From Antedon mediterranea (lineage: Eukaryota > Animalia > Echinodermata): a stretch of 64,000 nucleotides of DNA. Position 1 is the first letter of the stretch. Each line of letters opens with the position of its first letter. The stretch spans positions 9,362,001-9,426,000 of the forward strand of contig NC_092672.1 of NCBI RefSeq assembly GCF_964355755.1, read 5' to 3'. The position numbers and the translations under genes are program-made. The notes beneath the pieces were generated by a model. That model made no database searches, had not been told where the DNA came from, and saw nothing but the letters and a program-made list of their open reading frames with translations. Positions 7,983 to 61,559 of the stretch are shown in pieces.

Positions 7983-8024
<42 letters not shown>

Positions 8025-16810: not shown

Positions 16811-16883
16811 CGACCACGATGGGACTCGAACCCACAATCTTCCGATTCGAAGTCGGACGCCTTATCCGTTGGGCCACGCGGCC
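16811..16883 (-). tRNA. trnR-TCG: tRNA-Arg (anticodon TCG)
   Basis: GGCCGCGTGGCCCAACGGATAAGGCGTCCGACTTCGAATCGGAAGATTGTGGGTTCGAGTCCCATCGTGGTCG: 73 nt, complete cloverleaf, anticodon loop CTTCGAA, TTTT terminator a few bases downstream. Confidence 0.96.
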
Positions 16884-17815
16884 ACCTGATTAATTGTGTG
16901 GAACTGAGCATATAATTAGTGACAACAAGCAAAAATAACACCATCTGCCAACATTTATTCAAGCTATGAAATCACAACAAATAAAAAGTACAATGACAAT
17001 AACAAAACTTGGTTGAAAAACCACCGACCTTGAATTATTGCCGGAAGCCTATGTAGTAGAAATACAATTGCTTCAATTGAACTTTTAAGTCTAATGCACA
17101 TAATTTTAAGTGCTTCCTGCTGATTTAAAGAAGATATTAGAATACAGTAAGTTATGCAAAAGGTACAGCAGCTACCAGAATTTGTTTCTTTTTGAAAATT
17201 TAATTTCGGCTTCTTTGATTAAATTTCGTTTAATAAATGTTGTATTACTAGTATTATATATAATAATAATTTATTCAAACGCTTACAAGTAAAAAATTAA
17301 AAGAATATGAAGAAACATATTATCACGAATAAAAGATTTTTTTGCAATATTAACATCTATATAAGTAGGCCTAAACTATACATCTATGTCTTCCTTGAAT
17401 TGTAAATTTTAAGTGGTTACTTTATAGAAGTAAATGTTTTCTTTTAAATGTGAATATTTCCATCATTAAAAAATCATTATTTGCCTAACATACCTTTAGT
17501 ATTTATAATGACTGTTAATAATATAATTTAATTATTTTCTTAGTGACGCACATGAAAAAGCCAGCACTAGGAGACACTGCCTCTTTTAATGTAGGCCTAT
17601 ATGTTTTGCACACATCGATTAAGATTATAAAATGGTTTGACCTAGTTACTTAATTTGCATAGCCAATTAACCAGTTTTTCATTAGAAATACTGCAACATT
17701 CAAGCTAGGCCTATTTCGAGTTTAGTCCCTTTTTAGCCATTATTTTGACAGTATAATTCTACTTTAATCCATCAATTATTAAACGATGAATTTAAAGGTA
17801 CAGATCAAAGATTAA

Positions 17816-18237
17816 AGATATATTGTCCCCCTGAAAAATATATATTTATTTTATAGTTTTTTGTTGAATATGCAATTTTAATAATAATAATAATACTTTT
17901 TTCGCAAGTATTCTCAAATGTACTTAGTATAAAGTACAAATTACGTCAGAGTAGGGCAAAACATCTAATTACTCAACTCCTTGACGCAAAACTACAATTA
18001 CAATAATTATTCACTTTAAAAATTAGATAAAAAAAAATTATATTTACCTGAAAAACTGTAATTTAAAGCAAATACAGTAGTCAAATTGACTGGAAGTTAA
18101 TAGGTTTTTGGTTGAAATTAACCGATTATTTCGTTATTTTATAAGTGTAGAGGCTAAACATAATTTTTGTTTACGTAAGTGATAACTATATTAAAACTGC
18201 GAAATGACCTAGTGCCTATTACAAGAACAATACCTCT
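17816..18237. mobile_element. TTAA-flanked MITE (Kolobok-like)
   Basis: TTAA|AGATATATTGTCCC...ACAATACCTCT|TTAA; internal similarity to 15354-15683. Confidence 0.65.
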
Positions 18238-18916
18238 TTAATAACTCCACGCAATTATATAGGTATATTTAAATTTTAATCGGAAATATATCTTTGCATT
18301 ATTACTTTTATTAAAATAATTCCAGTAAATCTGGAGACACCTAAAATTGGAAGGCTTATGGATATTTTTCATTATACATGCTAAAAATAAATGGTAGGGT
18401 GGTCAGTGAAAAATCGAAAAGCATTCGATTTTATTTAACAACACTAGTATCAAGGGGATACTTTCTCGTAAACGAAATTACGAAGGGCGATATAATTATA
18501 TTTTGTCAATTCTATTCCGAGAATATGGAGACACTTTGATGGGTTTCGAATTGTGGGTAGCCACGAATGTTCCTTTAATATGAGTTCTATTGTAGCTAAG
18601 ATGGAAACATTGACAGACTATTAATTATTAGTAAAACCAGTTCAATACTATAGAAAGGTTAGTGTACACACACTTTAAAAAATCTTTATCGTATCCTTTT
18701 TTATTTAACACATCTAAACTAAAGGGTAGGCCTACAACAATCATATGAATATAGGTCTATGCAAAAACAAACAACGTTATACACTGTGTTCGATGGATAC
18801 GAAAGTATAACCACATAACGTTTTTGCGACTCATGCGGGTGATTGTAGGTTCATTCCTTTTGGTTGCGTATGCCCATTGTATCCCGTTATGTCTGCTTCT
18901 GATAGACAGGAGTCTA

Positions 18917-27200: not shown

Positions 27201-30200
27201 AAAAGACGTAGATAAATAAAATCTAATAGTTGTGATCTAATCCTAACCATATGATAAATTACTGAAAGTCTCAAGAAGGGTAATCCACGAAGGAAACGAA
27301 CAATATGACGAGCATTAATTTTACCCTTAACCTTTTGGGGAAAAAAACCTCTAATAGGGTGTTCTTTACGTTTACCAATATTACATCAAAAAGAGCAAAT
27401 GAATTAGTATAGAAGATTTTAATTTATATTTGAATGAAATAGTTAGAACCTAATTGATTGATGATTAAAAAATTTGCAAGGGAAATCCTTAGTGCATGTT
27501 TTACTATAAGTTGTTGTTTTGATCACATTGTTGTGCCGTATCCGTCTTTATAGTCTCTGACGTGTCTTCGATAATTTTCTCTATTAACCTTACATGAGTC
27601 ACTGAAAAGAAAAGCCAAAACACAATTTTGCTCAAAGCTATTAATTCGTCATTATTTTGGAAAGTGAGGAATGTCGCGCGGAGGTTATAAACTTTAAAAC
27701 TATTAATAAACAAATGAGTATTAATACAAATTAATAACATATAAAACATGTAGTCCGTACGTATGTTGTGTTTCAGCTGAAGTTGTTCAGCTAAACAGAT
27801 ATTTGACAAAGTTATTACATTTAGAACGACTATCGTTGTTGTGAAACATTGGGATTCAAGCAAACTAGTCTATGAGCAAATACCAGTTATGAATCTAAGA
27901 AATGATTAAACCTTTCTCTTTATACGTTATTGTCCTCAATTTGAAAAATTAAATGCAGTTGCTCCACTAGCCGCTAGCGCATTAGGTCTGCTGAAGCATC
28001 TAACACAAAATAATCCAAAATGTAACTTAACTAAAATGCATAATTCTTATTTTGCAGTGTCGAAAGATAAGCGATTTGACTTGCAAAGAGAAGGTGTTCG
28101 TCTGTCTTTCATTATTTACATTGCTATTCTGCATTGGCTTAACCATCGAACGTCTCCTCATCGTTGACACTCTCTCAGCTGACTTTACATTTGTGTTGCT
28201 CATTTTAGTCAATTGTGGTAAGTAAAGTAGGCCTTTTCAATTCCATAGCGTTGCTTATTGTGTTGACAAATAATGGTGAATTAAGAAATTGAAAACAGGG
28301 TCTGTTATGTTAAAATTATGAGCACTGCTTACTGTTAATTGTATAAACCTCGAAGTATAATATGACTTAAAACGGGTACAAAGGTATGAATATCTAAGAT
28401 GAGAGGTTCTCAAACACTGATCTTACAACCTTGATAAAAAAAACTCATCATCAGGATCCCTCATTTAAAAATGCGAGCCTCATGACCATTTACACAAAAA
28501 GTTTAAACATTAATTAAACATTCTCTAAATTTTGCTTAATATTTATTTATTTATAGTTCTTGGAGCATCTTATATTGTAATTATTGAATTTTGTATTTGT
28601 TTCCTCCTAGTATTCTGTGTATATTACGTAATACATGCAGTACTCAAAGAACATCCATGGGAACTATTTGTGTTTTCTACAATGATACTGCTAGTGTTAG
28701 TGGTGTGCATTGTAAATTATACCATAACATACAATCATTCAAAAGACCATGTCAAATTGGTATGTAATTTTTAAATCTTTTCATTAAATTTCTAATTTTA
28801 AAAATCTACTACTAATTGATTGAAATAAGACAATTAAAAACACTCGGTGGTAAAAGTACACTAGATCGTATACGGCATTCTAAACAAAAAGACTAAATAA
28901 ATATTAAACAATTAAACTGGAGCATGCATCTGTATTCTCACTTTAAGAAATACTAATTTTCTCCATATAGGTCCGTCTTGTGTTGATAAGTTGTGTTGCA
29001 CCTTTTGTGGTTATATTAGCTGCTAAGATAGGCATCAATTATCATCGAGCGAAGAATCTGATTTTTCGAACAGTTGGCGCCAATTTGAAACTGCAAAGTA
29101 AGTCTGTTGTTAATATTATATTGACCGTTTTACATTGAGTTGGCTTAAATCTGTCACGAGTAATTTAAGTTATATCTTTTATAGAGAAAAACGTTAGAAA
29201 GTGCATACAATGTATCATATTGAGACCGCAAAGACTGTTTAAACTAGGACGCAGCGTAACGGCATGGCACGACGTAAGTGAGTTGACCAATCACACGCGA
29301 CAGATGGTCCATCAATGCTCAAATTACTTTCAGTGTGTGGTTACGTTCTTGCGTTGCGTACCCAAGTAGAATCCAAGCTTTAACATTTGTTAAAAGATCG
29401 TATTTTTTTGGTGTTAATTTAGGAATTTCAAAGGCCTGTAAACGTGAATGTTCCTGGCGTGGTTTTGACTGGTTTTCCTAGTATTTGTTGAGCTATAGCC
29501 TAGACATAATGTGCACTATATAATACGCAACGCGGAGTTTAACATGATAGATGGGGTGTGGTGCTTACACCTGTGATTGAAAAAAAATGTTAATTGATCG
29601 ATGTCTTACAAATTTCAATAAGAAGACGAATATTGATTTCCTATACCTAAATCTGAACCAACAATGTAGGCAACTTAGAAATATAGGCCTTCAAAGTTGA
29701 CGAATCAAACGAATAAACACGGCAAGCGAAAGTACATTCTCTAACAGAAAAACCACATTATTATAATAATGAAGCTAGTTCTTGGAAGGTTGTCAATTCA
29801 ATCAAGTTACTTGCTGAAAATTGGCACACTCAGTCATATAGTTAATTGATGATCTAAAGTGAAGAACTGTGTACGCACATAATGTAGACTACTACTATTA
29901 AACACAGCAATCATGATAAACAGACATTTTAGTTCCTGTCTCCTTTCTTTATTTAAACATAGCGAAAAAGAGATACATCAAATGTATGATGATCACACTA
30001 ATATCGTAAGGTATGGGGCGTTGTATTGTAACAAAACAGATACCATGGATTGTGGAAGATGTAAAGTGCATCTTAACGCGGCAAACTAACATTCAAACTA
30101 AGTCAAAAACTCATAGCCACCTGCTTATTTTATTGTACAGTGTTACATTCATTTGTTTTCAGATATATGTGGGAAGATGTATTTGTTTGCTGATTTGCAG

Positions 30201-33200
30201 AAATTTGATTTGCAACTACAAGTGAGCTTGTCATTTTTACTAAAATGTCTTTGACATTGTTTTTTGTACAATATTATTAGAACATAACTAAACAACTAAA
30301 TTGGTTCAAGTCATTTTAACATAAAAGAAGTCTTTTTGGGAGAGTTTTATAATAATTTGACAAAATGTTCATTTAAACTACCAGTAATTTATAAAGAATA
30401 GTTTCCCTGTCTATTATTGTAAACAAAAATTACAGAATAAACAAATCCAAAAATGGAGGAATATATTCCTGTGCAGGAATGATGTCTCAGAGTAATACTA
30501 TAGTGTATTTGCGTGGATTAATGTATTAATGTCTGCGGATAAATATACACTTTGGCAATCATAGTTAGTAAACACTTTCAAATCATTCCCGGACATCCGA
30601 ATGTTTACACATAGCGTAAACACTTTAAACGCACTATTTACATTCTGAACGCGTCGCACACGTCGACATAAACGCGCCACATAGCCACATTTTTTACATA
30701 GTGTATAATTTTGTGCTTGTTTTACATTCAATTTATAATGTTATCAAATAGAAACCAGCTGATTGTGCATTTATCACTTATTGGTTGACAGATTTCCATG
30801 TTGGTATTGGTGTTGAAGGAGGGCGCAAATCTCAACCTACTCGAGGAAATTGTTCTAGGCGTCGGTATTCCGCTTGGTTTAATATGGAACGTGCTTGGAT
30901 ATGTATCAGTGAGTAATAGCATACACCAAACTTTATCTTTGCATCAAAAACCTCAATTTTATAAATTTGAAATCAAAATAATCTATACAAATCTGATGCT
31001 GAGCAAATTAAGTTAGAAGGTAGAACATCATGCGGGTTTTTCTATTTGAAGCTCAAGAGATAAGAAGATAAATATAACTTTGGGTCGAATTAAAAATAAA
31101 TAATTCTTAAATATTTCTAAGTAACTTTACTGAGTGACATGCGAAACAGCTGTGAATTACAGTGAGGGAAGGGGTAATCCCATGGGTCAGTTTACAGGCC
31201 ATCTTCTTATTCTTTCAAAGGCACTATTTTTAGATTTAACAAGACGACATGAGGTCTAAAATTGGCATAGATACCATCTTTTATGAAAGTTCAATGTGAC
31301 ATGAATTCATGTGTAATGACCTAACTAATCTGTATCTTATTTATACATACATTATCTTTTCATGCTTATTATTATCTGCCTGTATGATAAAGATCCATAC
31401 AGTAGATATACTATAGAACTAAAACGTCAAACTTGGCGACAGTAAAGTGATGACAATACCGCAAAATGGCTGCCATTGCATTAAATAAAAAAGCCCAAAT
31501 TAGGTCATTTTTACAATTACAAAATATATTTATCAAATATTTAAGTGAGGATATTAAAGTTTCAGGGGAGTAGTAAGTCATCATAGGTTAGGTCATAATG
31601 GGCATTTGTCCAACAAACTCGATCGCATCTACCAGTTGAACTTCTAAATTTTAACACGATTAATTATCTACTTATATGTTTGTGTGCTAATAAGAGTTAT
31701 TTTATAATACTTAGGTTTGGAGAGAGAGTAAACCATTAGTAGTCTTCTATTTATCAACAAGCTGGATATTCCCTGCATATATTTTGTATAAATACATTGA
31801 TGTAAGTATATTGAATGTCTGCATCATTACAAATTGCTACAAACATATACAGATGTAATGTTATAGATTAACTTTATCAGCACAAAGTCTTTTGTGATTT
31901 AGGTCCGACCAAGAATGTTCTAAAATTGTCATGGATCATAGATATTTGCCGCCATATTCTACCTTCTTAAAACTATGCATGCTTACTGAACACTGTACAT
32001 CCATTTTTAGTTCAAGTTTATAAATACAGTAGTCGTTTTGTTACAACATTATTATATTATTGCACCTAGTTTGATCAAGTAAAGTAAAGTGCATGATGTA
32101 TGAGTGTTCACTGACTAGTGTCACAAAGTAAAAAGTAGGCCTACTATAAAATACATCGGTAAAATGTGGTACGGTACTTTTATTGGGGAAATGTGTTTTG
32201 ATGAATAACAACATTATACAAGAATCATACAACATATCAATACGATTATAATTTAATCTTTGACTTTTCATAGATTGGCTTTAACTGGGTTAGTGAAGCT
32301 TCTAAGCTTCTCCCTACATGCATCATCATCTGCGGGACGTTAGCTCTCATCATTCGGTTGTGGATAGTAGGCATCATCGGTTACCTGTACAGACATTTTG
32401 GTCATGACTTAGGCAATAAAGGTATATTAGGGTCATTTGCACCAATTTGAACACTAAATATTGCATTGTAGTAAGGCCTAATCCCAAGAATTCAGTTTAA
32501 ACCAATTGAATAGGCAGCCCTTTCTATAAAGTTGTTAAGCCGGTATGTAGGCCGCCTACTAAACTTAGGTGATGTATCATGAAACTTACGATCACAGAAG
32601 AGAACTGAAGGTGTAGTTTATTCCTTCCACAAAATACTAATAAGTTAAATCTACTCCAATCGAATAATCTAAACAAATTTAATCTGCAATCATATTTCAA
32701 TCTTATCTACTCCAATTTAATCGAATCGAATGCAATCTAAAATCGAATCCAATCTGCTTTAATGTGAATTCAATCTAACCTATTCAAATCCAATTTACTC
32801 TAATCTAATCTAATCCAATCTGGTTTAATACAAATCCAGTCGAACCTATATCGAATTTATCAAATCCAAACCTAATATAATGTATTTCTTTTAGTTTTTG
32901 GAAGTGGTGAGCAATGGCGAAATTCAAGCATTGAAATAAAACAATTTAGACCAAAATCCACTTCACGCCTAAGTAGCGTTCGCTTGAAAACATGGCCGCC
33001 AAAATTCAAGAAATCTTTAAAAGATAAACGACGGAGTGAAAGAGATTCTATCAAAGAAAGACCCGACAGCTCGTCATCACGTGACAGGTCTTCGCACGCA
33101 GAAACGTCATCGCAAGTCGGACTAATAATGGAGAAGAAAGCAGTCAAGAAAAATGAAAAGAAAAATTCATTATCTTTAAGCTTTAAAATTTCAAAGTCAG

Positions 33201-41880: not shown

Positions 41881-44800
41881 ACGGGAACTATGGTCTTAAG
41901 TCCATTAAGATAGCGGGATCATAGACTGTCAAATTATATTAATTTTTTTTCTTGGACCATTGATCTTAAGCCATTCAAGGTAAACACGAGAGGTGAAGTC
42001 TTTATAGCTTCAGAAGATGGGTTGCCCAAGGGGAGTTTGTCGTATCATCGATCTGCAAACTTCGTGAGTAATTGTCAAAAATGAGATGCGATTATTTAAG
42101 TTTCCTGTTGAGCAACCAAAAAAATACAAAATCGAATAGAGACACGTGTGATTGACAATCTTGTCACAAAATAAAATCAGCTCCCCTGCTGGTTATTGCG
42201 GGGTTTAGTCAGAGGAATGTTATACAAAGTGCAGTTTGAACATTTCACCTTTTTTGACACATGTAAACTTCTAAACTTTTAGATGGTAACAGGCTTTTTT
42301 CGATATCGAATTCATGTTGTCCGGAGCAATCGGTAGCCAACATATCTCAACACTTGCAAAAATATTTATAGAAATTCAATTTATGATCCTTTAAAAGCTA
42401 TTTTAATCGTAGAAAAAATTGAATTAAGTATTTCAATTTATGTTTCAAGATAGCGACGACAGCTATGTTGATAAAGTGATGGTCAGCTACTAATGCAGAA
42501 CTTCAACAGAACATTGATGTGATCACGACTAAACTAAACAATCATGTTCTGGATATCCAGGAATCCAGCGAATGCTCTGACAAAAATCAGTTGCAAGATA
42601 GTCAGAGCGTCTTCATTCTTACTGGCACTGAAAGGTCCGACTACCAGTATGTGATGAAACTAAATTAAGACTAACCTCTACCGATTTAATACAATTCATC
42701 ATCTACTCTTGTTGCACTTCGAGCCTTGAGTGGCCTATGCTCAATCTAGTATCAATTTAAAATATAATTTTAAGAGATTAACATCACACTACTATCTGTT
42801 TTGTTCTCTAAAAGGGGGTTTCATTATTTCATATATTATTTGAAAATGATTGAAGTCTTGGGATACATATCTTTATTATAATTTGATGCAAAAAACCACC
42901 AAAATGTATAACAAGGATAACTAGTGTACAATATACAAGTGACTATTGACGCATAATTTATAAAACTTTCTGTTCTACTTTTCTTCTATACTAGATTGAC
43001 TACTTACTATAAATGTTGAAATAAATTCATCTATATAAAACTTTTAAGAAAATATACATAACGACTGAAAAAAATGGTGAGGCGAATCCACAAAGACACA
43101 TTAACAGTAGCAAAATAAGGGAAAATTATGAAAAAAGATGGATAATGCGAGAAATATAAAAGTATGGAATGTTTACGAACATATATATGGCAAGCCTCAG
43201 CTGTCTGAAGTATTCAAAATATTATATTATTATATCATTTTTTTATTATATTATATATTGTATTGTAATGAATTATACGTTTTGCATTATATTACTTGGT
43301 TTTAGCATTATATTATATCTATTTCTAATATATTATGTGAAAAATGTAACAAATTATTGACTTTTTGTATTATATTATTTGGTTTTAGCATTATATTATG
43401 AACATTTAATATTATATTATTAATAAAATACATTATATTATAATATAATTGTATTATATTAAACGCATTTACTTTACTTTATAACATACAACATTATTAT
43501 ATTATACGGATTCGTTAGTTATATTATTATTTTGTATGATGTTTATTATACGTCACGGCTTATTTCAGTTCTTCTAACTCTTTCTCTCCCTCCCCCTGTT
43601 CACTAGCAATCAGCGGCCGGCAGAATCTGAATTGTGACTGTTGAAGAATAACTACGTACTAGGCCTAGCCTAGGCCTACTAGGGGATCTAGACAAGTGAC
43701 CAAGGATCACCGGACAGCTACAACTAATACTACAATACAATAATACTACTACAATAACTACTACTGCTACTACCTAGGCTTAGCTAGTGAGTAGTAGGTA
43801 GCTACTACTAGGCTCTAGGGCGTATGTATGATGTTAACTACTAGGGCCTAGGCCTAGGCTAGACCTAGAGGCCTACTAGTACTAGGCTAGGCCTAGACTT
43901 AAGTTGTAGTAGGCTAGGGCCGGGCCTGCTGCCTTAGGCTAGGCTACTACTACTACTACTACTAGGCAGCCCATGATGGGTACGAGTAAGCCAAAATTTT
44001 GGATATATGTAAACCAAAATTTGGGTACGAGCGTGTTGGCATGGCATGGGTACGGGTTGAACTGTATTCTTCTAGCTAATCGTACTATGCCTAGGCCTCA
44101 AGTAAGTCTACGCTACCCAGTCCGGCTACAATATGGTCTATTTTGTTTTATAGCTTTATTGATAGCTGGGTTCAAATCTGGGTTGGGACGGCTTTTTCTC
44201 ATTCTAAAACAGATTTCCTTATCATAATAAAATAATATATGAATTTATTTGTAATATTATTGTAATGTATACATAATATAAGTAATTGCCATTGCCTTTA
44301 TTACTATTAATTATGTATTATACGGTTACCCCTTAATTATACTATAGTATAATTTCCTTGTTATATTTTACAATATTTTCTTCCTAATTCTACAATTTTG
44401 TCTTTCACAGCACAAATTTATCATACTGAATCATCACACACCAAGTCTCATAAATCTCTACTGTATTTGTCCAAGCTACTCCAGCTACATGGTATTGCCT
44501 TGAGGCTAAACTACACGGTATACTGGCACTACCATCATTCCTGGCTCGTCAACCTGTACCACATAAGCACAGTTTCAGTTTATTTACCATTTCAATTTCT
44601 GAACATAAGAGATGAACAACTTATATGGATGGATAACGGTAAGAGCGAAGCTCGTTTACCGGTCACCCGTTAGTGCAGTGACATTACAGAAAACATAAAG
44701 ACTGGACAAAGGTGCAATACTTAACAAGACATGTGAACACTTGTGTGTGCAACCCCTTGGATAAAATAATATATTTATATAAAGGAGAAAGTTAGATATT

Positions 44801-47800
44801 ATAATATTTCTTTTTGATCATACAATGATAATTTTTAAATTACTTCTTAAGAAGTCATACTACTGATTCAAAATAGTGACTTACACCCTGTGGTCAAGGC
44901 TTTATTTGCTCTTATGCGTATTTCCTCCAACATACAGAGTACATAGGACTTTTTTTATTCATAACTGTTGAATTGTTTCCCAATACATAGTACCTATTGG
45001 TATTATATCTAAAAATACAAAGGCGGCTAACACAGATAGTTCCATATATACAGTACTCTTTTATAGATAGATGTATCTCACCAAACTACTCCCAACTACC
45101 TAATCTAATAATAGTACTATTAGCATACTACTATACACTTTGTAGACAAGAAATAAGTTGTATACACCTACAGGACTTATGGTAGTACAGTCGAACGCCC
45201 TCTCACTGGCCCGGTAAACATAATCTATACCTAGATTATTACAGTAATTAAAGTACATTATTACAGAGTTTTTTTTTTTTGTTGCAGAAATCAAAGTTAT
45301 GTGTATAGAAAGCAGTACTCGTATTAAAAACTAAGCAGGTTGCAGGTCTTGAATGCAAACTGGCAGGATATTTTGAATATTTTTTGTTGTTGAAATGAGG
45401 GAATCCTAACTTCAATTTCCACGAACTGGAGACGAAGACATATTATGACCCTTTTATTTAAATTTATTTGAATAGACGTCCATGTAAAGTCATTAAAGGC
45501 TACATGATTGTTTTATATTTTAATATGTGATAGTAGGAAATCATTGTGTATAATGAGGACTATGAATCTGATATTTACTTGCATTCTTATCTTTTTAAAA
45601 TATTATTTATAATGCCGGTAATGAGTTTAAAATTTAATTATATTGACTATTTTTGATAATCATCATGTCCTTATAAATTCATTTATACTTTTTTTGTGTA
45701 ATATAGTTCATATATTATGTATTAAATAAATTGGTAAGGCCCTATACTGTTATTATTTAAGGAAAGTTTATATACACTATTATTTTATGCCTACCAATAT
45801 TAGTATTAATTGTTTATGTAAATATTTTTTCTAATTGCCTTGATTTTTGTATAGGCCAATGGCATCAATGTTTTTCTCAAAGCGAATTAGCCTAATAATG
45901 CCACATTTAGACACATGATTCATTGATTTCTGATATTCTGTACTTGTGTATGCATTACTAAAATAGTAGTTAATATATTTCATTTATAATGTATGTATAA
46001 ACATATATTCATATTTTTTTTAACATTTTTAAATTTAAAAATTATTACAATACCTATCTACCTTTCATATATTGTTACTATTATATAATATTTTTTGAGG
46101 CAGCAATAAAAAAAAAATTAAAAAATTTATTTGACTTATACTGTACTATGTTAGTTCAGGAGATGAAGTGTGTGTGGGCAGAAACTAGTGTGTTGGAGGT
46201 TGTTGGTGTGAGGTGTATAGTTGTCACTTTAAGACCTAAATTAGATGTTTTCTGAAGAAAAGAAGTAAGCGGATACGCTTTCAAACAACTCCAAGAAGAT
46301 TCACACAAAAATAATTACTTTCCAATAAAATAGTATATGTTTTTAAGCAAAATTCTATCCAAAACCCGAATTTTTATGTTAAATGTGATATTTAATATTG
46401 AAGTGCTTTGAATACGTTGATGAAATTTGGAGATATGAAACTTTGTTAGGAGTAGAACCAGCTTCCAGCATTGAATGTTAAAAATATGTTCATATTACTC
46501 ATTAATTAATAATAATTATTAATAAATTAATAGAAAACTAGAGAGGGCACTTTTCGAAAAGAAAATGAATGTTTTTTTATGTGCGTTATTATTCCGCTCG
46601 AGTTTATTCAATGTACTGTAATATACACTGTTATACTACTTTATTGGAAAGTAATTATTTTTGTGTGAATCTTCTTGGAGTTGTTTGAAAGCGTATGCGC
46701 TTACTTCTTTTCTTCAGAAAACATCTAATTTAGGTCTTAAAGTGACAACTATACACCTCACACCACCAACCTCCAACACACTAGTTTCTGCCCACACACA
46801 CTTCATCTCCTGAACTAACATAGTACAGTATAAGTCAAATTAATTGTTCTAATTTTTTTTTTATTGCTGCCTCAAAGAATATTATATAATAGTAACAATA
46901 TCAGAAAGGTAGATAGGTATTGTAATAATTTTTAAATTTAAAAATGTTAAAAAAAATATGAATATATGTTTATACATACATTATAAATGAAATATATTAA
47001 CTACTATTTTAGTAATGCATACACAAGTACAGAATATCAGAAATCAATGAATCATGTGTCTAAATGTGGCATTATTAGGCTAATTTGCTTTGAGAAAAAC
47101 ATTGATGCCATTGGCCTATACAAAAAATCAAGACAATTAGACAAAATATTTACATAAACAATTAATACTAATATTGGTAGGCATAAAATAATAGTGTATA
47201 TAAACTTTCCTTAAATAGTAACAGTATAGGGCCTTACCAATTTACTTAATACATAATATATGAACTATATTACACAAAAGAAATATAAATGAATTTATAA
47301 GGACATGATGATTATCAAAAATAGTCAATATAATTAAATTTTAAACTCATTACCGGCATTATAAATAATAATTTAAAAAGATGAGAATGCAAGTAAATAT
47401 CAGATTCATAGTCCTCATTATACACAATGATTTTCTACTATCACATATTAAAATATAAAACAATCATGTAGCCTTTAATGAGTTTACATGGAGGTCTATT
47501 TAAATAAAAGGGTTCGTGGAAATTGAAGTTAGGATTCCATCATTTCAACAACAAAAAATATTCAAAATATCCTGCCAGTTTGCGTTCAAAAACCTGCTTA
47601 GTTTTTAATACGAGTACTGCTTTCTATACACATAACTTTGATTTCTGCACAAAAAAAAAAAACTCTGTAATAATGTACTTTAATTACTGTAATAATCTAG
47701 GTATAGATTATGTTTACCGGGCCAGTGAGAGGGCGTTCGACTGTACTACCATAAGTCCTGTAGGTGTATACAACTTATTTCTTGTCTACAAAGTGTATAG

Positions 47801-48444
47801 TAGTATGCTAATAGTACTATTATTAGATTAGGTAGTTGGGAGTAGTTTGGTGAGATACATCTATCTATAAAAGAGTACTGTATATATGGAACTATCTGTG
47901 TTAGCCGCCTTTGTATTTTTAGATATAATACCAATAGGTACTATGTATTGGGAAACAATTCAACAGTTATGAATAAAAAAAGTCCTATGTACTCTGTATG
48001 TTGGAGGAAATACGCATAAGAGCAAATAAAGCCTTGACCACAGGGTGTAAGTCACTATTTTGAAACAGTAGTATGACTTCTTAAGAAGTAATTTAAAAAT
48101 TATCATTGTATGATCAAAAAGAAATATTATAATATCTAACTTTCTCCTTTATATAAATATATTATTTTATCCAAGGGGTTGCACACACAAGTGTTCACAT
48201 GTCTTGTTAAGTATTGCACCTTTGTCCTGTCTTTATGTTTTCTGTAATGTCACTGCACTAACGGGTGACCGGTAAACGAGCTTCGCTCTTACGGTTATCC
48301 ATCCATATAAGTTGTTCATCTCTTATGTTCAGAAATTGAAATGGTAAATAAACTGAAACTGTGCTTATGTGGTACAGGTTGACGAGCCAGGAATGATGGT
48401 AGTGCCAGTATACTATGGAACGCCTCCTCTGCCTTCAGTTCACA

Positions 48445-48742
48445 ATGGTCATGCAGTACACACCAATCGTCATGCAGTACACACCAATGGTCATGCAGTA
48501 CACACCAATGGTCATGCAGTACACACCAATCGTCGTTCACATTTATCATGCAGTACACACCAATGGTCATGCAGTACACACCAATCGTCATGCAGTACAC
48601 ACCAAACATCATGCAGTACACACCAATCGTCATGCAGTACACACCAAACATCATGCAGTACACACCAATGGTCATGCAGTACACACCAATTGTCATGCAG
48701 TACACACTAATCGTCATGCAGTACACACCAATCGTCATGCAG
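48445..48742 (+). repeat. 21-bp tandem array (CATGCAGTACACACCAATCGT), ~14 units
   Basis: Directly visible. Confidence 0.95.
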
Positions 48743-49075
48743 TAAAATATTGCATAATTTATACCGCCACCTATCGACAAAATCGAATATCACGTGACGT
48801 TTATTAGACGGCTGTAAAACTAGGCCATCGACTCTAAGATTTCTTTTATGTTTGACATACTGTACTTATTTTAACCGCTACACATCTCTGTGAATGCTCT
48901 GTTTTTTATATATACAATAATTTATTATGCGAGACACAGGCGCGGCTAGGAGGCCATTGCAATTATTGAATTCCATAAAAGAAGTTTAAATAGTCTTAGT
49001 TTTACAGCCGTCTAATAAAACTCACGTGATATTCGATTTTGTCGATAGGTGGCGGTATAAATTACGCAATATTTG

Positions 49076-49473
49076 ACTGCATGACGATTGGTGTGTACTG
49101 CATGACGATTGGTGTGTACTGCATGACAATTGGTGTGTACTGCATGATGTTTGGTGTGTACTGCATGACGATTGGTGTGTACTGCATGACGATTGGTGTG
49201 TACTGCATGACGATTGGTGTGTACTGCATGATAAATGTGAACGACGATTGGTGTGTACTGCATGACAATTGGTGTGTACTGCATGACCATTGGTGTGTAC
49301 TGCATGACGATTGGTGTGTACTGCATGACGATTGGTGTGTACTGCATGACGATTGGTGTGTACTGCATGATGTTTGGTGTGTACTGCATGACGATTGGTG
49401 TGTACTGCATGACGATTGGTGTGTACTGCATGACGATTGGTGTGTACTGCATTACGATTGGTGTGTACTGCAT
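49076..49473 (-). repeat. Inverted 21-bp tandem array, ~19 units
   Basis: Reverse complement of the 48445-48742 array, with more units. Confidence 0.95.
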
Positions 49474-51315
49474 GATAAATGTGAACTTAAGGCAGAGGAG
49501 GCGTTCCATAGTATACCGTGTAGTTTAGCCTCAAGGCAATACCATGTAGCTGGAGTAGCTTGGACAAATACAGTAGAGATTTATGAGACTTGGTGTGTGA
49601 TGATTCAGTATGATAAATTTGTGCTGTGAAAGACAAAATTGTAGAATTAGGAAGAAAATATTTTAAAATATAACAAGGAAATTATACTATAGTATAATTA
49701 AGGGGTAACCGTATAATACATAATTAATAGTAATAAAGGCAATGGCAATTACTTATATTATGTATACATTACAATAATATTACAAATAAATTCATATATT
49801 ATTTTATTATGATAAGGAAATCTGTTTTAGAATGAGAAAAAGCCGTCCCAACCCAGATTTGAACCCAGCTATCAATAAAGCTATAAAACAAAATAGACCA
49901 TATTGTAGCCGGACTGGGTAGCGTAGACTTACTTGAGGCCTAGGCATAGTACGATTAGCTAGAAGAATACAGTTCAACCCGTACCCATGCCATGCCAACA
50001 CGCTCGTACCCAAATTTTGGTTTACATATATCCAAAATGTTGGCTTACTCGTACCCATCATGGGCTGCCTAGTAGTAGTAGTAGTAGTAGTAGTAGCCTA
50101 GCCTAAGGCAGCAGGCCCGGCCCTAGCCTACTACAACTTAAGTCTAGGCCTAGCCTAGTACTAGTAGGCCTCTAGGCCTAGCCTAGGCCCTAGTAGTTAA
50201 CATCATACATACGCCCTAGAGCCTAGTAGTAGCTACCTACTACTCACTAGCTAAGCCTAGGTAGTAGCAGTAGTAGTTATTGTAGTAGTATTATTGTATT
50301 GTAGTATTAGTTGTAGCTGTCCGGTGATCCTTGGTCACTTGTCTAGATCCCCTAGTAGGTCTAGGCTAGGCCTAGTACGTAGTTATTCTTCAACAGTCAC
50401 AATTCAGATTCTGCCGGCCGCTGATTGCTAGTGAACAGGGGGAGGGAGAGAAAGAGTTAGAAGAACTGAAATAAGCCGTGACGTATAATAAACATCATAC
50501 AAAATAATAATATAACTAACGAATCCGTATAATATAATAATGTTGTATGTTATAAAGTAAAGTAAATGCGTTTAATATAATACAATTATATTATAATATA
50601 ATGTATTTTACTAATAATATAATATTAAATGTTCATAATATAATGCTAAAACCAAATAATATAATACAAAAAGTCAATAATTTGTTACATTTTTCACATA
50701 ATATATTAGAAATAGATATAATATAATGCTAAAACCAAGTAATATAATGCAAAACGTATAATTCATTACAATACAATATATAATATAATAAAAAAATGAT
50801 ATAATAATATAATATTTTGAATACTTCAGACAGCTGAGGCTTGCCATAAACATACTATTGATCGCATTATTTTTATTAAATCGTATAAAGGATAGGAGAA
50901 ACTATAAGAAAATAATTTGTGGAAAAATCAGAATAACATTGGATTAATGTATAAAATCATTGTATTGATCAGTTGAAAATGAAATGAATAAAAGTAATGG
51001 TTGTTAGAAGAAGAAAAAGAGAAACAAAACACTCAATAAACAAAATTGGTTAAGGAGAATCTATTGTTTTTAAACCACCATGGAACAGGATTAACAATAT
51101 CACAGAAGCCATGCAAGGAATAACACTTTTGCATTACACACACTAAATTCCAAAGATTCCAAAGCTACAACACAGTAAGTAGAATGAGTAATACTTACTT
51201 ATTGTATGAAATAATATCGAATTAAAAAAGTATTTGGTTGAGTCAGCTCTATAAACTTTGAGAATGAATATTGTGGTCAGTGCACTACATGTCAAACTTG
51301 TATTTTGCAATATCA

Positions 51316-54300
51316 TATGGCAAGCCTCAGCTGTCTGAAGTATTCAAAATATTATATTATTATATCATTTTTTTATTATATTATATATTGTATTGTAATG
51401 AATTATACGTTTTGCATTATATTACTTGGTTTTAGCATTATATTATATCTATTTCTAATATATTATGTGAAAAATGTAACAAATTATTGACTTGTTGTAT
51501 TATATTATTTGGTTTTAGCATTATATTATGAACATTTAATATTATATTATTAATAAAATACATTATATTATAATATAATTGTATTATATTAAACGCATTT
51601 ACTTTACTTTATAACATACAACATTATTATATTATACGGATTCGTTAGTTATATTATTATTTTGTATGATGTTTATTATACGTCACGGCTTATTTCAGTT
51701 CTTCTAACTCTTTCTCTCCCTCCCCCTGTTCACTAGCAATCAGCGGCCGGCAGAATCTGAATTGTGTGACTGTTGAAGAATAACTACATACTAGGCCTAG
51801 CCTAGGCCTACTAGGGGATCTAGACAAGTGACCAAGGATCACCGGACAGCTACAACTAATACTACAATACAATAATGCTACTACAATAACTACTACCTAG
51901 GCCTAGCTAGTGAGTAGTAGGTAGCTACTACTAGGCTCTAGGGCGTATGTATGATGTTAACTACTAGGGCCTGAGGCCTACTAGTACTAGGCTAGGCCTA
52001 GACTTAAGTTGTAGTAGGCTAGGGCCGGGCCTGCTGCCTTAGGCTAGGCTACTACTACTACTACTACTAGGCAGCCCATGATGGGTACGAGTAAGCCAAC
52101 ATTTTGGATATATGTAAACCAAAATTTGGGTACGAGCGTGTTGGCATGCCATGGGTACGGGTTGACCTGTATCCTTCTAGCTAATCGTACTATGCCTAGG
52201 CCTCAAGTAAGTCTACGCTACCCAGTCCGGCTACAATATGGTCTATTTTGTTTTATAGCTTTATTGATAGCTGGGTTCAAATCAGTGTTGGGACGGCTTT
52301 TTCTCATTCTAAAACAGATTTCCTTATAATAAAATAATATATGAATTTATTTGTAATATTGTAATGTATACATAATATAAGTAATTGCCATTGCCTTTAT
52401 TACTATTAATTATGTATTATACGGTTACCCCTTAATTATACTATAGTATAATTTCCTTGTTATATTTTACAATATTTTCTTCCTAATTCTACAATTTTGT
52501 CTTTCACAGCACAAATTTATCATACTGAATCATCACACACCAAGTCTCATAAATCTCTACTGTATTTGTCCAAGCTACTCCAGCTACGGTACATGGTATT
52601 GCCTTGAGGCTAAACTACACGGTATACTGGCACTACCATCATTCCTGGCTCGTCAACCTGTACCACATAAGCACAGTTTCAGTTTCAGTTTATTTACCAT
52701 TTCAATTTCTGAACATAAGAGATGAACAACTTGTATGGATGGATAACCGTAAGAGCGAAGCTCGTTTACCGGCCACCCGTTAGTGCAGTGACATTACAGA
52801 CAACATAAAGACAGGACAAAGGTGCAATACTTAACAAGACATGTGAACACTTGTGCTTGCAACCCCTTGGATAAAATAATATATTTATATAATGGAGAAA
52901 GTTAGATATTATAATATTTCTTTTTGATCATACAATGATAAGTTTTAAATTACTTCTTAAGAAGTCATACTACTGATTCAAAATAGTGACTTACACCCTG
53001 TGGTCAAGGCTTTCTTTGCTCTTATGCTTATTTCCTCCAACATACAGAGTACATGGGACTTTTTTTATTCATAACTGTTGAATTGTTTCCCAATACATAG
53101 TACCTATTGGTATTATATCTAAAAATACAAAGGCGGCTAACACAGATAGTTCCATATTATACAGTACTCTTTTATAAATAAATGTATCTCTCCAAACTAC
53201 TCCCAACTACCTAATCTAATAATAGTACTATTAGCATACTACTATACACTTTGTAGACAAGAAATAAGTTGTATACACTAGAGGACTTATGGTAGTAAAG
53301 TCGATCGCCCTCTCACTGGCCCGGTCAACATAATCTATACCTAGATTATTACAGTAATTAAAGTACATTATTACAGAGTTTGTTTTTTTTTTGCAGAAAT
53401 CAAAGTTATGTGTATAGAAAGCAGTACTCGTATTAAAAACTAAGCAGGTTGCAGGTCTTGAACGCAAACTGACAGGATATTTTGAATATTTTTTGTTGTT
53501 GAAATGATGGAATCCTAACTTCAATTTCCACGAACTGGAGACGAAGACATATTATGACCCTTTTATTTAAATTTATTTGAATAGACCTCCATGTAAACTC
53601 ATTAAAGGCTACATGATTGTTTTATATTTTAATATGTGATAGTAGAAAATCATTGTGTATAATGAGGACTATGAATCTGATATTTACTTGCATTCTTATC
53701 TTTTTTAAATATTATTTATAATGCCTGTAATGAGTTTAAAATTTAATTATATTGACTATTTTTGATAATCATCATGTCCTTATAAATTCATTTATACTTT
53801 TTTTGTGTAATATAGTTCATATATTATGTATTAAATAAATTGGTAAGGCCCTATACTGTTATTATTTAAGGAAAGTTTATATACACTATTATTTTATGCC
53901 TACCAATATTAGTATTAATTGTTTATGTAAATATTTTGTCTAATTGCCTTGATTTTTGTATAGGCCAATGGCATCAATGTTTTTCTCAAAGCAAATTAGC
54001 TTAATAATGCCACATTTAGACACATGATTCATTGATTTCTAATATTCTGTACTTGTGTATGCATTACTAAAATAGTAGTTAATATATTTCATTTATAATG
54101 TATGTATAAACATATATTCATATTTTTTTTAACATTTTTAAATTTAAAAATTATTACAATACCTATCTACCTTTCTGATATTGTTACTATTATATAATAT
54201 TCTTTGAGGCAGCAATAAAAAAAATGTAAAAATTTATTTGACTTATACTGTACTATGTTAGTTCAGGAGATGAAGTGTGTGTGGGCAGAAACTAGTGTGT

Positions 54301-57300
54301 TGGAGGTTGGTGGTGTGAGGTGTATAGTTGTCACTTTAAGACCTAAATTAGATGTTTTTTGAAGAAAAGAAGTAAGCGCATACGCTTTCAAACAACTCCA
54401 AGAAGATTCACACAAAAATAATTACTTTCCAATAAAGTAGTATAACAGTGTATATTACAGTACATTGAATAAACTCGAGCGGAATAATAACGCACATAAA
54501 AAAACATTCATTTTCTTTTCGAAAAGTGCCCTCTCTAGTTTTCTATTAATTTATTAATAATTATTATTAATTAATGAGTAATATGAACATATTTTTAACA
54601 TTCAATGCTTGAAGCTGGTTCTACTCCTAACAAAGTTTCATATCTCCAAATTTCATTAACGTATTCAAAGCACTTCAATATTAAATATCACATTTAACAT
54701 AAAAATTCGGGTTTTGGATAGAATTTTGCTTAAAAACATATACAAAAAACATCGATAAAAAATACTTTTCGTATTCAAAAACATTTGATACTTGGTATAA
54801 ATGTTCACTATAGGTTGCTCTATTCACAGAAGAAAATTGCATTCATGAACGTTTTTTGTTGGTTGTTTTTTTTCAAAATAGTTATTAGCTTGAAAAAAAT
54901 GAGTTGGAATTGTATGGTCTTTCATAAGTGTACATTTTGTAAAAACGTAAATTTAAAAAATCAGTGATATGGCTTGATAGTTATTTTTTGCTTGCAATAT
55001 GGATGGAGCAACCTATATTGAACATTTATACCAAGTATCAAATGTTTTTGAATGCGAAAAGTATTTTTTATCGATGTTTTTTGTATATGTTTTTAAGCAA
55101 AATTATATCCAAACCTGAATTTGTAATGTTAAATGTAATTGATTTAAGTGCTTTGAATACGTTGATGAAATTTGGAGATATGAAACTTTGTTAGGAGTAG
55201 ATACAGTTTCCAGCATTTAATGTTAAAAATATGTTTATATTACTCATTAATTGATAATAATTATTAATAAATTAATAGAAAACTAGAGAGGGCACTTTTC
55301 GACAAGAAAATGAATGTTTTTTATGTGCGTTATTATTCCGCTCGAGTTTATTCAATGTACTGTAATATACACTGTTATACTATTTTATTGGAAAGTAATT
55401 ATTTTTGTGTGAATCTTCTTGGAGTTGTTTGAAAGCGTATCCGCTTACTTCTTTTCTTCAGAAAACATCTAATTTAGGTCTTAAAGTGACAACTATACAC
55501 CTCACACCACCAACCTCCAACACACTAGTTTCTGCCCACACACACTTCATCTCCTGAACTAACATAGTACAGTATAAGTCAAATAAATTTTTACATTTTT
55601 TTTATTGCTGCCTTAAAAAATATTATATAATAGTAAGAATATTAGAAAGGTAGATAGGTATTGTAATAATTTTTAAATTTAAAAATGTTTAAAAAAATAT
55701 GAATATATGTTTATACATACATTATAAATGAAATATATTAACTACTATTTTAGTAATGCATACATAAGTACAGAATATCAGAAATCAATGAATCGTGTGT
55801 CTAAATGTGGCATTATTAGGCTAATTTGCTTTGAGAAAAACATTGATGCCATTGGCCTATACAAAAATCAAGGCAATTAGACAAAATATTTACATAAACA
55901 ATTAATACTAATATTGGTAGGCATAAAATAATAGTGTATATAAACTTTCCTTAAATAATAACAGTATAGGGCCTTACCAATTTATTTAATACATAATATA
56001 TGAACTATATTACACAAAAAAAGTATAAATGAATTTATAAGGACATGATGATTATCAAAAATAGTCAATACAATTAAATTTTAAACTCATTACCGGCATT
56101 ATAAATAATATTTTAAAAAGATAAGAATGCAAGTAAATATCAGATTCATAGTCCTCATTATACACAATGATTTTCTACTATCACATATTAAAATATAAAA
56201 CAATCATGTAGCCTTTAATGAGTTTACATGGAGGTCTATTCAAATAAATTTAAATAAAAGGGTCATAATATGTCTTCGTCTCCAGTTCGTGGAAATTGAA
56301 GTTAGGATTCCATCATTTCAACAACAAAAAACATTCAAAATATCCTGTCAGTTTGCGTTCAAGACCTGCAACCTGCTTAGTTTTTAATACGAGTACTGCT
56401 TTCTATACACATAACTTTGATTTCTGCAAAAAAAAAAATACTCTGTAATAATGTACTTTAATTACTGTAATAATCTAGGTATAGATTATGTTGACCGGGC
56501 CAGTGAGAGGGCGATCGACTGTACTACCATAAGTCCTCTAGTGTATACAACTTATTTCTTGTCTACAAAGTGTATAGTAGTATGCTAATAGTACTATTAT
56601 TAGATTAGGTAGTTGGGAGTAGTTTGGAGAGATACATTTATTTATAAAAGAGTACTGTATAATATGGAACTATCTGTGTTAGCCGCCTTTGTATTTTTAG
56701 ATATAATACCAATAGGTACTATGTATTGGGAAACAATTCAACAGTTATGAATAAAAAAAGTCCTATGTACTCTGTATGTTGGAGGAAATAAGCATAAGAG
56801 CAAAGAAAGCCTTGACCACAGGGTGTAAGTCACTATTTTGAATCAGTAGTATGACTTCTTAAGAAGTAATTTAAAAATTATCATTGTATGATCAAAAAGA
56901 AATATTATAATATCTAACTTTCTCCATTATATAAATATATTATTTTATCCAAGGGGTTGCAAACACAAGTGTTCACATGTCTTGTTAAGTATTGCACCTT
57001 TGTCCTGTCTTTATGTTGTCTGTAATGTCACTGCACTAACGGGTGACCGGTAAACGAGCTTCGCTCTTACGGTTATCCATCCATACAAGTTGTTCATCTC
57101 TTATGTTCAGAAATTGAAATGGTAAATAAACTGAAACTGAAACTGTGTTTATGTGGTACAGGTTGACGAGCCAGGAATGATGGTAGTGCCAGTATACCGT
57201 GTAGTTTAGCCTCAAGGCAGTACCATGTAGCTGGAGTAGCTTGGACAAATACAGTAGAGATTTATGAGACTTGGTGTGTAATGATTCAGTATGATAAATT

Positions 57301-58542
57301 TGTGCTGTGAAAGACAAAATTGTAGAATTAGGAAGAAAATATTGTAAAATATAACAAGGAAATTATACTATAGTATAATTAAGGGGTAACCGTATAATAT
57401 ATAATTAATAGTAATAAAGGCAATGGCAATTACTTATATTATGTATACATTACAATATTACAAATAAATTCATATAATTATTATTTTATTATAAGGAAAT
57501 CTGTTTTAGAATGAGAAAAAGCCGTCCCAACCCAGATTTGAACCCAGCTATCAATAAAGCTATAAAACAAAATAGACCATATTGTAGCCGGACTGGGTAG
57601 CGTAGACTTACTTGAGGCCTAGGCATAGTACGATTAGCTAGAAGGATACAGGTCAACCCGTACCCATGCCATGCCAACACGCTCGTACCCAAATTTTGGT
57701 TTACATATATCCAAAATTTTGGCTTACTCGTACCCATCATGGGCTGCCTAGTAGTAGTAGTAGTAGTAGCCTAGCCTAAGGCAGCAGGCCCGGCCCTAGC
57801 CTACTACAACTTAAGTCTAGGCCTATGCCTAGTACTAGTAGGCCTCTAGGAGGCCTAGCCTAGCTAGGCCCTACCTAGTAGTTAACATCATACATACGCC
57901 CTAGAGCCTAGTAGTACTGTAGCTACCTACTCTACTCACTAGCTAGGCCTAGGTAGTAGCAGTAGTAGTTATTGTAGTAGTATTATTGTATTGTAGTATT
58001 AGTTGTAGCTGTCCGGTGATCCTTGGTCACTTGTCTAGATCCCCTAGTAGGCCTAGGCTAGGCCTAGTACGTAGTTATTCTTCAACAGTCACACAATTCA
58101 GATTCTGCCGGCCGCTGATTGCTAGTGAACAGGGGGAGGGAGAGAAAGAGTTAGAAGAACTGAAATAAGCCGTGACGTATAATAAACATCATACAAAATA
58201 ATAAAATAACTAACGAATCCGTATAATATAATAATGTTGTATGTTATAAAGTAAAGTAAATGCGTTTGATATAATACAATTATATTATAATATAATGTAT
58301 TTTATTTATAATATAATATTAAATGTTCATAATATAATGCTAAAACCAAATAATATAATACAAAAAGTCAATAATTTGTTACATTTTTCACATAATATAT
58401 TAGAAATAGATATAATATAATGCTAAAACCAAGTAATATAATGCAAAACGTATAATTCATTACAATACAATATATAATATAATAAAAAAATGATATAATA
58501 ATATAATATTTTGAATACTTCAGACAGCTGAGGCTTGCCATA
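51316..58542. mobile_element. Giant palindromic non-autonomous DNA transposon, copy 2 (IS3EU-like ends)
   Basis: ATATCA|TATGGCAAGCC...GGCTTGCCATA|ATATCA is a perfect 6-bp TSD. Arms are 51316-~54820 and ~55006-58542, with a spacer of only ~185 bp. Confidence 0.93.
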
Positions 58543-60460
58543 ATATCATACAACCAAGTATAATATTATATTGAAGTGTTAACAGCCTAGAGGTCAATAA
58601 AGAACATGCTTTTTAAAAGGTTAAATATTTTATTTGTACATTACTTATTTATCTCGTCGTTAATTAAAAAAGATTCAAATATGTAAGCCTAACTGTATAT
58701 GTTTCTACCAATGCTAATATATAATTCCCGTGAATTTGAATTTAATAGCTTCCGAAATATTACTCATTGTATTCTTCGTGCGTATAAAAAACAAGAAATA
58801 ATTGTATTAATTGATATTGAATCTAATTTCTCTATGTAAAAAAAAGAAATTATTATTAATTGTGTATGTCAATATGTTGTTATACCTCGGATCGCTGGCA
58901 TTTGGAAATAAACGGCGCAGATCTAGGCAAGAAGAAGCTAACAAACAAATATTTAAAAATACTACAGTACATGCCTAATGTAAAGCCGTCACTGCCACAA
59001 CGACCTTTTAAATACAGGCGATCAACGAACATTCACACAATATGAAAGGTTTCAGCAGTTTGTATTCGGTTTGGCTTATAGTGCCGAATAAAACAACTAA
59101 AGTGTCTGGTATAAAAGCTAGCTTTCTGCAGCAGACCTTTCCATTTTATCATCACTCACAAGTTCGTTCAAACCCCATCATAAATCACAAATTAAGTCGA
59201 CGTTACCTTGACAGTAGGCGGGGTGCATTTTTGTCGAGGAATACCCCGGCAAGGATGTAGTATAAGTGCTTTAATAGGTGAAGGAGTACAGGGACAGCGT
59301 GTGTCTTTACTTTCCAATGTAATTAGGAAATGAAGGCTCATACGCTACCTCAGTACTAAGTACCTAACTGCTTTTGCTATTCCATATGGAAAGTTTGATT
59401 TCATATCTACACAAACAATATTGCAAGTTTGATCTCTAGATACCGATAACCAGCATGAGCCCGGATGTCTGCAAAAGAATGTTAAACATTCGACATACAA
59501 CCAACCAGATACATTGTACCATTTCGATATTTAAGTTCAATAAAAGATTGCATTCCAAACACATAGGGGCCTACAAATTTGTTTTAGAATTTCCCTACCT
59601 CCGATTTAATTATGTCGTCTGAAAGCGAGATCGTCACGCACACGAAAAACCGACGATGGTGGATGTAGCAGGCAATGTTTCAATATGTCTGAATGTCAAT
59701 AACGGACAACCACCTGTCAATTAAATCACAAGTTCATTTGAATGTCACGTGCACTTAGGGATTTAATTATAAGCTACATTACAGATAACACAAATCACAT
59801 TGAACGAGACATTCAAACTGGAGTTAATCTTGGTTTTCTAAGATAAAAACGGTCTTTAGTAAGCCTACAGTGCAGTAATAGATTCTTTGATTTTTCTTTC
59901 TTTTAAATGAATCTTGAAGTGACCTGAAGTGACACTAGTTGACAACCCCCTCCCCCACAACAACACCTACACAAACCAATCAAAACTATTAATATGAATT
60001 ACTGATACTGATTTTATTATTCCGATAATTGATCGATTGATTGTTTGCTGGCTGATTGATATGTTTGAGTGTAGTATTTAACCAATACATTTTTACACAA
60101 AATATTGCTATTAATTAGGCCTATCCCGGATTGTTATTCAGATTGTTGTGTTAAAAAATGTAAATATAAAAAAAAGAACCTTGGTTGATTGTTTGCTGGT
60201 GGATTGATATTTCTGAGTGTATGAATATGAAGATTTCCTGCAATTGAATAGATCGGGCTTACTCATCAACAAAACAAAATCACTTTCACTTCAAAACTAT
60301 ATTATGGCAATGGTAATACTAATGTATTAGGAATATGGTTAATTGTTAGGTTTACAATTTGGCGGTTATTGGTTCGAGTCAATTCCTGATAAATTATAAA
60401 TACGTACAGGTAATTAAGGGCATTATACTTTCTATTTATATTTAGGCCTACGTGACATAA

Positions 60461-60619
60461 AGCCGATTTTCCACTAGGCGAATTTGTTCGCGCGAATCGA
60501 ACGCGCCAGCTTTTACGCATGTGTATTCATGTTTACGTCTTCCAAATCCTTCTCTACGCATGCGTATTAGCTGACGCCTTCGATTCGCGCGAACAAATTC
60601 GCCTAGTGGAAAATCGGCT
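60461..60619. mobile_element. Hairpin MITE with ~40-bp perfect TIRs
   Basis: TAA|AGCCGATTTTCCACTAGGCGAATTTGTTCGCGCGAATCGAA...TTCGATTCGCGCGAACAAATTCGCCTAGTGGAAAATCGGCT|TTA. Confidence 0.85.
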
Positions 60620-61559
60620 TTAGAGGACAATAAATATGTATTTTCAAATCAATTATTGTCCTAATAAAGCTACCTAGGAATTTAGCTAACTAGCTAACTA
60701 TATGTTTTTACATGGGAGTTTTATTAGACTCATTAATCTTTAGAATGTTTTTTGTACGAAAAATCAACAGCGAAAATATGGAATTACCGTAAAGTTATGC
60801 TGACAATTTCCATTTTCACTTAATTAATACTGAAAAAAAAATCGGCCAAAGAATTAGAAATTTCTCAGAGCGTTAAATTCTCCGAGGCAGTTCTACATAA
60901 AGGTCGACATTCTAAAAATATATATAAAAATGTATATTTTGTAAAAACTGCCTACAGTTGAACAACAGAACGACCTTTAGAAGCGGACTTCCGCTCAAGA
61001 AATTCTATTTCTTAAGATCCTTTTTGTATTTTGACTTTGCTTGATCTATTTTTTAAAAACTGAAATATATGAACTGAGTAATAAATATTATTGCATTGTT
61101 GGCTTAATGGGTGTATGTGTGTAATATAGTACTGTATATTTTTTAATGAAATGTTTATTTTCCTTCAGTAAAATATTATTTATAAACAATTCCAACCCCA
61201 AAACATTTATTTTATTTCAACAATATTTAACGAGGGTGGTCCATCCAGCCGAAGCTGATCATTAGGAACCCTTACAAAAATACAACATGTAACAATAACA
61301 ATTAAAATCAATATAATTTTTAAAGATAAATAAATTTAAATAAAGCACAACAAAAATTATATTCAAAAATAAAATGAATAAAATGAAATGACTTTATGAC
61401 TTAAAGATTCAAATATTTAATTCTTATTGCAGTATAATTGGCACGAATCGACGCTAATGCATTACCCATGTTCCTGCAAACATTCCAAGAATCATGGACT
61501 AATTATTACTCCATGCAAGAATACACCAGACCTTTTTTTGTGTCGATAGAAGTCAAATA

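Follow-up and report, generated by a model that had tools for sequence, protein, structure and literature searches.

The two neighbouring elements described here, E1 and E2, are foldbacks by structure: they consist mostly of long inverted arms, and a transposase gene went undetected. We consider it probable that they are gene-less near-palindromes of a high-copy family, moved whole by a DDE transposase of IS3EU/GingerRoot type that acts from elsewhere, and that their outer arms have been re-copied through break repair or gene conversion. Palindromes as large as these, with a spacer of 173 bp, can evidently spread in the genome of an intron-bearing eukaryote; their weak point is the centre, as E1 illustrates. 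A family of 7-kb palindromes whose insertions appear absent from other samples is a large natural data set on how long inverted repeats stay alike, and on whether this is tied to transposition.

Two foldback elements in inverted orientation

Self-BLAST of the window, by which we mean the whole 64-kb stretch of DNA that was analysed, placed E1 at 43186-50848 (7,663 bp) and E2 at 51316-58542 (7,227 bp), two copies of one family in inverted orientation relative to each other and separated by 467 bp of host DNA (50849-51315). All four ends, at 43186, 50848, 51316 and 58542, read TATGGCAAGCCTCAG, as the initial annotation of this region had observed, and are identical over 15 bases; the termini of both elements are TATGG...CCATA, and the form of this terminus usable as an end query is TATGGCAAGCCTC. 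E2 has a left arm of 3,511 bp (51316-54826, plus strand), a spacer of 173 bp (54827-54999) and a right arm of 3,543 bp (55000-58542, minus strand). Its arms make up about 98% of the element and are 96.8% identical with gaps counted, and its central kilobase is predicted to fold into a single stem. AT-rich subterminal repeats with periods of 21, 42 and 83 bp occupy the first 300 bp of the left arm; in E1 and E2 these repeats are degenerate and the arms mostly non-repetitive. None of the 27 open frames of at least 40 amino acids in the E2 left arm and spacer matched Pfam at E<=0.01, in keeping with the earlier report that no transposase ORF is present, and Rfam gave no match at gathering score across 43000-58700.

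The left arm of E1 (43186-46337, plus strand, 3,152 bp) is the counterpart of the right arm of E2 and stops at a deletion junction. An unpaired centre follows (46338-46631), and then the right arm (46632-50848, minus strand), which is broken up by a nested element, N1, and whose inner part matches the left arm of E2. Compared with E2, about 637 bp are missing at the centre of E1, the true spacer included, and the junction carries a 5-bp microhomology, GTATA, at 46333-46337; the hairpin-prone centre would have been lost through microhomology-mediated deletion. Hairpins of 7.2-7.7 kb with arms of 3.1-3.5 kb had been described here, and these dimensions stand. Of the accompanying spacers, put at 185-295 bp, that of E2 measures 173 bp here, and the 294-bp one of E1 needs correction: it is no true spacer but unpaired inner arm left by the deletion.

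Ends, target duplications and the likely enzyme

Both elements are flanked by target duplications, and the flanks agree with what had been reported. That of E2 is exact, with ATATCA on either side (51310-51315 and 58543-58548). At E1, AACATA stands on the right (50849-50854) and AACATA (43178-43183) followed by an extra TA (43184-43185) on the left. At local composition, one given 6-mer flank match has a chance of about 5e-4. Taken by themselves, the flanks of E2 would also fit a symmetric 8-bp duplication, AATATCAT, around ends of the form ATGG...CCAT. This reading is ruled out by an empty site of N1 and by the family boundary at 50848.

N1 (48414-49510) is a 1,097-bp foldback of a second family inside the right arm of E1, and was absent from the earlier account of that element. 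Its ends read TATGGAACGCCTC, and its arms of about 430-470 bp, both composed chiefly of a 21-bp minisatellite, surround a centre of about 190 bp. It is flanked by an exact 6-bp duplication, GTATAC at 48408-48413 and 49511-49516, and at the corresponding position of the sister arm GTATAC stands only once. This empty site provides an internal control for a 6-bp duplication and places the first T outside the target DNA. In the public runs X1 (record 2) and X6 (record 22), contigs of high depth reach no further than 50848, and in four of four runs the loose flanks, which are mixed, set in just after 50848 or 50849. Together with the N1 empty site, these stops place the end of the element at CCATA and fix the duplication at 6 bp.

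The window has six occurrences of the motif TAYGG-A-GCCTC, one at each terminus of E1, E2 and N1, and the sharing of TATGG-A-GCCTC by both families makes it likely that one enzyme, or related enzymes, serve them. Plain TAYGG is no commoner than expected by chance, with 161 occurrences where shuffled sequence averages 196, and a scan of the window for inverted repeats with duplications, its output swamped by short palindromes within the arms, yielded no further element outside them.

The termini of published IS3EU families are TA..TA, their duplications are usually of 6 bp, and GingerRoot belongs to the same lineage (PMC10045372, in the part accessible). Fungal members are described with TAYGG..CCRTA ends, a 6-bp duplication and terminal inverted repeats (TIRs) above 30 bp (PMC12730594, likewise in part). 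The same termini are found at six of six ends of E1, E2 and N1. The 6-bp duplication is exact in two of the three elements (E2 and N1) and is 6 bp plus an extra TA in E1; TIRs are present, at lengths far above the published 30-150 bp. The earlier designation as a non-autonomous IS3EU family therefore holds as regards the TAYGG..CCRTA ends and 6-bp duplications, which equal the published signature, and the assignment to IS3EU/GingerRoot is likely, with the enzyme deduced from the ends. Such an enzyme would bind the termini and the AT-rich subterminal repeats, excise the element and insert it with a 6-base stagger.

Another mover acting on the same structure, be it Ginger2, another integrase-like enzyme or an undescribed transposase that leaves 6-bp duplications, is distinctly improbable. 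The partner transposase was not seen, and 6-bp duplications also occur in Ginger2, Polinton and some LTR elements (PMC6839031, in the part accessible), but the same source gives these elements TG...CA or AG-type ends. The termini here are TATGG...CCATA, and the five terminal bases conform to TAYGG..CCRTA in two families. Nor do E1, E2 or N1 have the 7-10-bp duplications of hAT, Mutator-foldback or P-Galileo elements.

Copy number and empty sites in other samples

Part of the arm is present in 20 of the 21 listed public runs, from at least five coded organisms, and five of the 21 were compared in detail with the window. Terminal depth is roughly 458-750 times flank depth in all three runs with flank cover (X2, X6 and X8), and median arm depth is roughly 628x in X2 and 876x in X6. 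Summed contig depth is not copy number and is taken here only as 'hundreds of copies', the figure of roughly 230-375 for the family being a depth ratio and not a count. Long arms are about as common as ends in depth, so they look family-wide. A drop in the spacer bin fits one spacer per two arms but lies at the edge of the stretch, and it is given no weight here.

The insertions of E1 and E2 appear to be missing from other samples. A 524-base contig of X2 matches 50849-51317 with four substitutions and 10 gap letters, and has 42 and 21 extra letters unlike E1 and E2; the inter-element DNA has about single-copy depth in this run over most of its length. Contigs of X8 match 50849-50907 and 51102-51317 and then continue unlike E1 and E2, and an X6 contig matching 51102-51317 also continues unlike E2; X1 has no cover at these places. 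An empty site would be expected to give a stop at 51317 instead of 51315, since the right flank goes on with TA. The apparent empty allele of X2 aligns from 50849, and its listed indels include no 2-base insertion at the start, which indicates that the extra TA of E1 is not part of that allele.

Several features of the depth profiles deserve mention in their own right. Within the inter-element host DNA, a depth peak marks a high-copy repeat of about 50 bp at 50945-51000. Depth in X1 peaks at 4,676 within 53297-53738, where other parts have a few hundred, and loose ends fall at 53395, 53456 and 53738; here, and at the same place in the other arms, the arm likely includes part of a different repeat of higher abundance. 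One contig, found in both X2 and X8, has two tandem copies of the terminal 58 bases (50791-50848), separated by 27 other letters, and represents a copy with a doubled end common to two coded organisms. Metagenome matches to an 18-base end motif were dismissed as chance at 16 of 16 loci, which have 45-68% GC, no likeness past the motif and no BLAST match to the window. A scan of a viral collection with a 23-base end motif gave no matches.

Probable concerted evolution of the arms

The history of the palindromes was read from an alignment of the four arms of the two copies, with N1 removed and columns within three of a gap dropped. Sixteen of the 20 informative substitutions join the arms of one element, four join the left arm of E1 with the right arm of E2 (1L-2R) and the right arm of E1 with the left arm of E2 (1R-2L), and the third split has none; two further element-wise sites adjoin a gap and are left out of the 20. 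Family polarity is given for one of the 16 element-wise sites, among the 40 listed of 230. The element-wise tree is preferred for the outer 2.2 kb, the alternatives having p-AU values of 2e-5 and 1e-4 with all columns used, and in the middle kilobase the element-wise and arm-wise trees are not separated. In the inner 0.7 kb, 1R equals 2L at 24 of 659 sites, 2L equals 2R at one and 1R equals 2R at three. This inner pattern reflects the inversion of E1 relative to E2 and means that the two classes of arm were both handed down across copies; set beside the element-wise order outside, it indicates that the outer arms were equalised later. The earlier proposal that the element transposes as an intact unit gains from this, as the inner arms keep their identity between copies and both sites appear empty elsewhere.

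Divergence within each element follows the same axis. The arms of E1 differ at 7 of 2,030 positions in the outer part (0.35%) and at 22 of 925 in the inner part, a partition as strong as which arose in none of 300 permutations. Those of E2 differ by 1.1% in the outer part, and in the three innermost bins by 4/158, 15/129 and 4/82, or about 5-12% near the centre; a change point in their first 3.2 kb was not significant, one as strong having arisen in 62 of 300 permutations. N1 sits in one arm only, within the 0.35% tract, and was therefore likely inserted later than the last homogenisation of E1.

Individual sites show how the copying may have run. At 53472 both E2 arms carry A, whereas G makes up at least 98.7% of the depth in four of four runs, which favours copying within the E2 lineage and argues against consensus polishing. 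Inside the homogenised tract, site 52100 retains the arm-wise pattern. Two sites, 53797 and 53800, have the letter of the family majority in the right arm of E1 and a shared minority letter in the three remaining arms, which indicates that copies also exchange with one another. It is likely, then, that the arms evolve in concert and that the outer arms have been re-homogenised: breaks in or near one arm would be repaired off the sister arm, at times off another copy, in tracts that would favour the outer arm.

Three other histories have to be weighed against repair between the arms. Long palindromes are difficult to assemble, and those described here are taken from the assembled sequence, not from a raw long read that spans them, so that the palindromes or the likeness of their arms might be products of assembly or polishing. 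This is extremely improbable: every arm shows substitutions and indels of its own, N1 lies with its own duplication in one arm only, target duplications match at the elements, and both E2 arms share a family-rare letter that consensus polishing would not be expected to leave. The elements are confirmed as real and not an assembly artefact.

The palindrome might also have been made afresh, either by snap-back synthesis that rebuilds each copy from one arm on moving or by one recent mirroring. The element-wise grouping of the outer arms would agree with this, but inner arms about 5-12% apart near the centre of E2, and the inheritance of both arm classes across copies (24 sites against one), make it very unlikely. 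For the same reasons the suggestion of the initial annotation that one end plus about 3.5 kb had been mirrored a single time is not upheld; outer arms only 0.35-1.1% apart, high central divergence and the grouping of the outer arms by element point to an old palindrome that has been repeatedly homogenised.

Finally, homogenisation could be coupled to transposition itself. In an IS3-like figure-eight or circle the joined ends would form a perfect palindrome, within which the arms could pair and be equalised from the termini inward before insertion. Arms more alike outside than inside are what this would produce, and transposition of IS3 elements does involve a TIR-TIR junction, its two ends a few bases apart (PMC7780238, in the part accessible); more speculatively, the extra TA of E1 could be a junction remnant, although slippage in a TA run explains it as easily. 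Against the coupling, E2 lacks a significant change point, the accessible accounts of IS3EU do not describe its chemistry, and the tie of IS3EU to IS3 proper is unsettled in the tree of PMC10045372, as far as that source was available. Neither of the two joints listed from public runs is an end-to-end junction, an absence that carries no weight, since rare forms are lost from contigs. We regard such coupling as unlikely, if the least remote of these departures from ordinary break repair or gene conversion, which we continue to prefer. Were it true, insertions could be dated by the identity of their arms, as is done with LTR pairs, and the 7-kb palindromes in their hundreds would record the first evidence on how the IS3EU superfamily transposes.

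Other features of the window

The window is AT-rich (GC about 31%), and four of the 61 open frames outside the elements match Pfam, all exon-sized and scattered: a PH domain (1029-1484, minus strand), a short-chain dehydrogenase (21572-21829, minus strand) and two DUF7789 pieces (28529-28771 and 30789-31013, both plus strand), each likely a host exon. Together, AT-richness and scattered exon-sized matches suggest an intron-bearing eukaryote. Other repeats accompany them. An element of about 980 bp with inverted ends and TTA/TAA-like borders (19519-20496) resembles a PIF/Harbinger-type miniature element, and a 165-bp hairpin with 68-bp arms (60458-60622) has similar ends. Degenerate inverted arms bounded by TTAA at 17812 and 21607, with a second partial arm at 15388-15687, make up a structure (15388-21607) that resembles a Kolobok-type element. 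An older foldback of about 700 bp (7330-8025), with 77% arm identity, adjoins a TA microsatellite; 41 of its bases resemble positions 972-1012 of the E2 arm.

Comparison with known systems

The structure and function of IS3EU elements are described as largely unexplored (PMC11934779, in the part accessible). From what published accounts offer in accessible form, E1 and E2 share with IS3EU and GingerRoot the TAYGG..CCRTA termini, the 6-bp duplication and the size range (3.9-12.9 kb for GingerRoot). They differ in that neither a transposase nor a second gene was detected in them, and in having arms of 3.2-3.5 kb against TIRs of more than 30 bp or, in GingerRoot, 100-150 bp (PMC6839031). Among the listed titles and opening lines of abstracts, none describes kilobase-armed IS3EU elements; Repbase, Dfam and supplements may hold such families. 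The bacterial IS3-family insertion sequences that move by copy-out/paste-in are namesake relatives of IS3EU, and their end-joined intermediates would explain a polarity from the ends, but their TIRs are short (PMC7780238, in part).

Among foldbacks, the shape is said to arise independently in several lineages, and most are assigned to Mutator (PMC4079207, in the part accessible). The initial annotation had linked long foldbacks usually to other superfamilies than IS3EU; an origin outside Mutator is already in print in the same source. Foldbacks such as Tetris are likewise gene-less, with long arms that contain internal repeats, but the TIRs of Tetris reach 1,735 bp and its duplications are of 8-10 bp (PMC4079207). 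To the classic minisatellite foldback, as outlined in the accessible literature, N1 with its 21-bp unit is closer than E1 and E2, which have only degenerate subterminal repeats. A parallel in behaviour is Galileo, of the P superfamily in Drosophila, in which the longest TIRs are those of non-autonomous two-TIR copies, chimeric copies occur, and TIR extension and conversion have been proposed to proceed via the repair of breaks with the other TIR as template (PMC3573991). Galileo differs in its TIRs of at most about 1.26 kb, its 7-bp duplication and its P-type enzyme, and an end-to-centre gradient of arm identity is not reported in the accessible part of that source. The foldback shape and exchange between TIRs are thus familiar from Galileo and Tetris, at shorter arm lengths; what E1 and E2 add are arms two to three times longer and an identity gradient that runs from end to centre.
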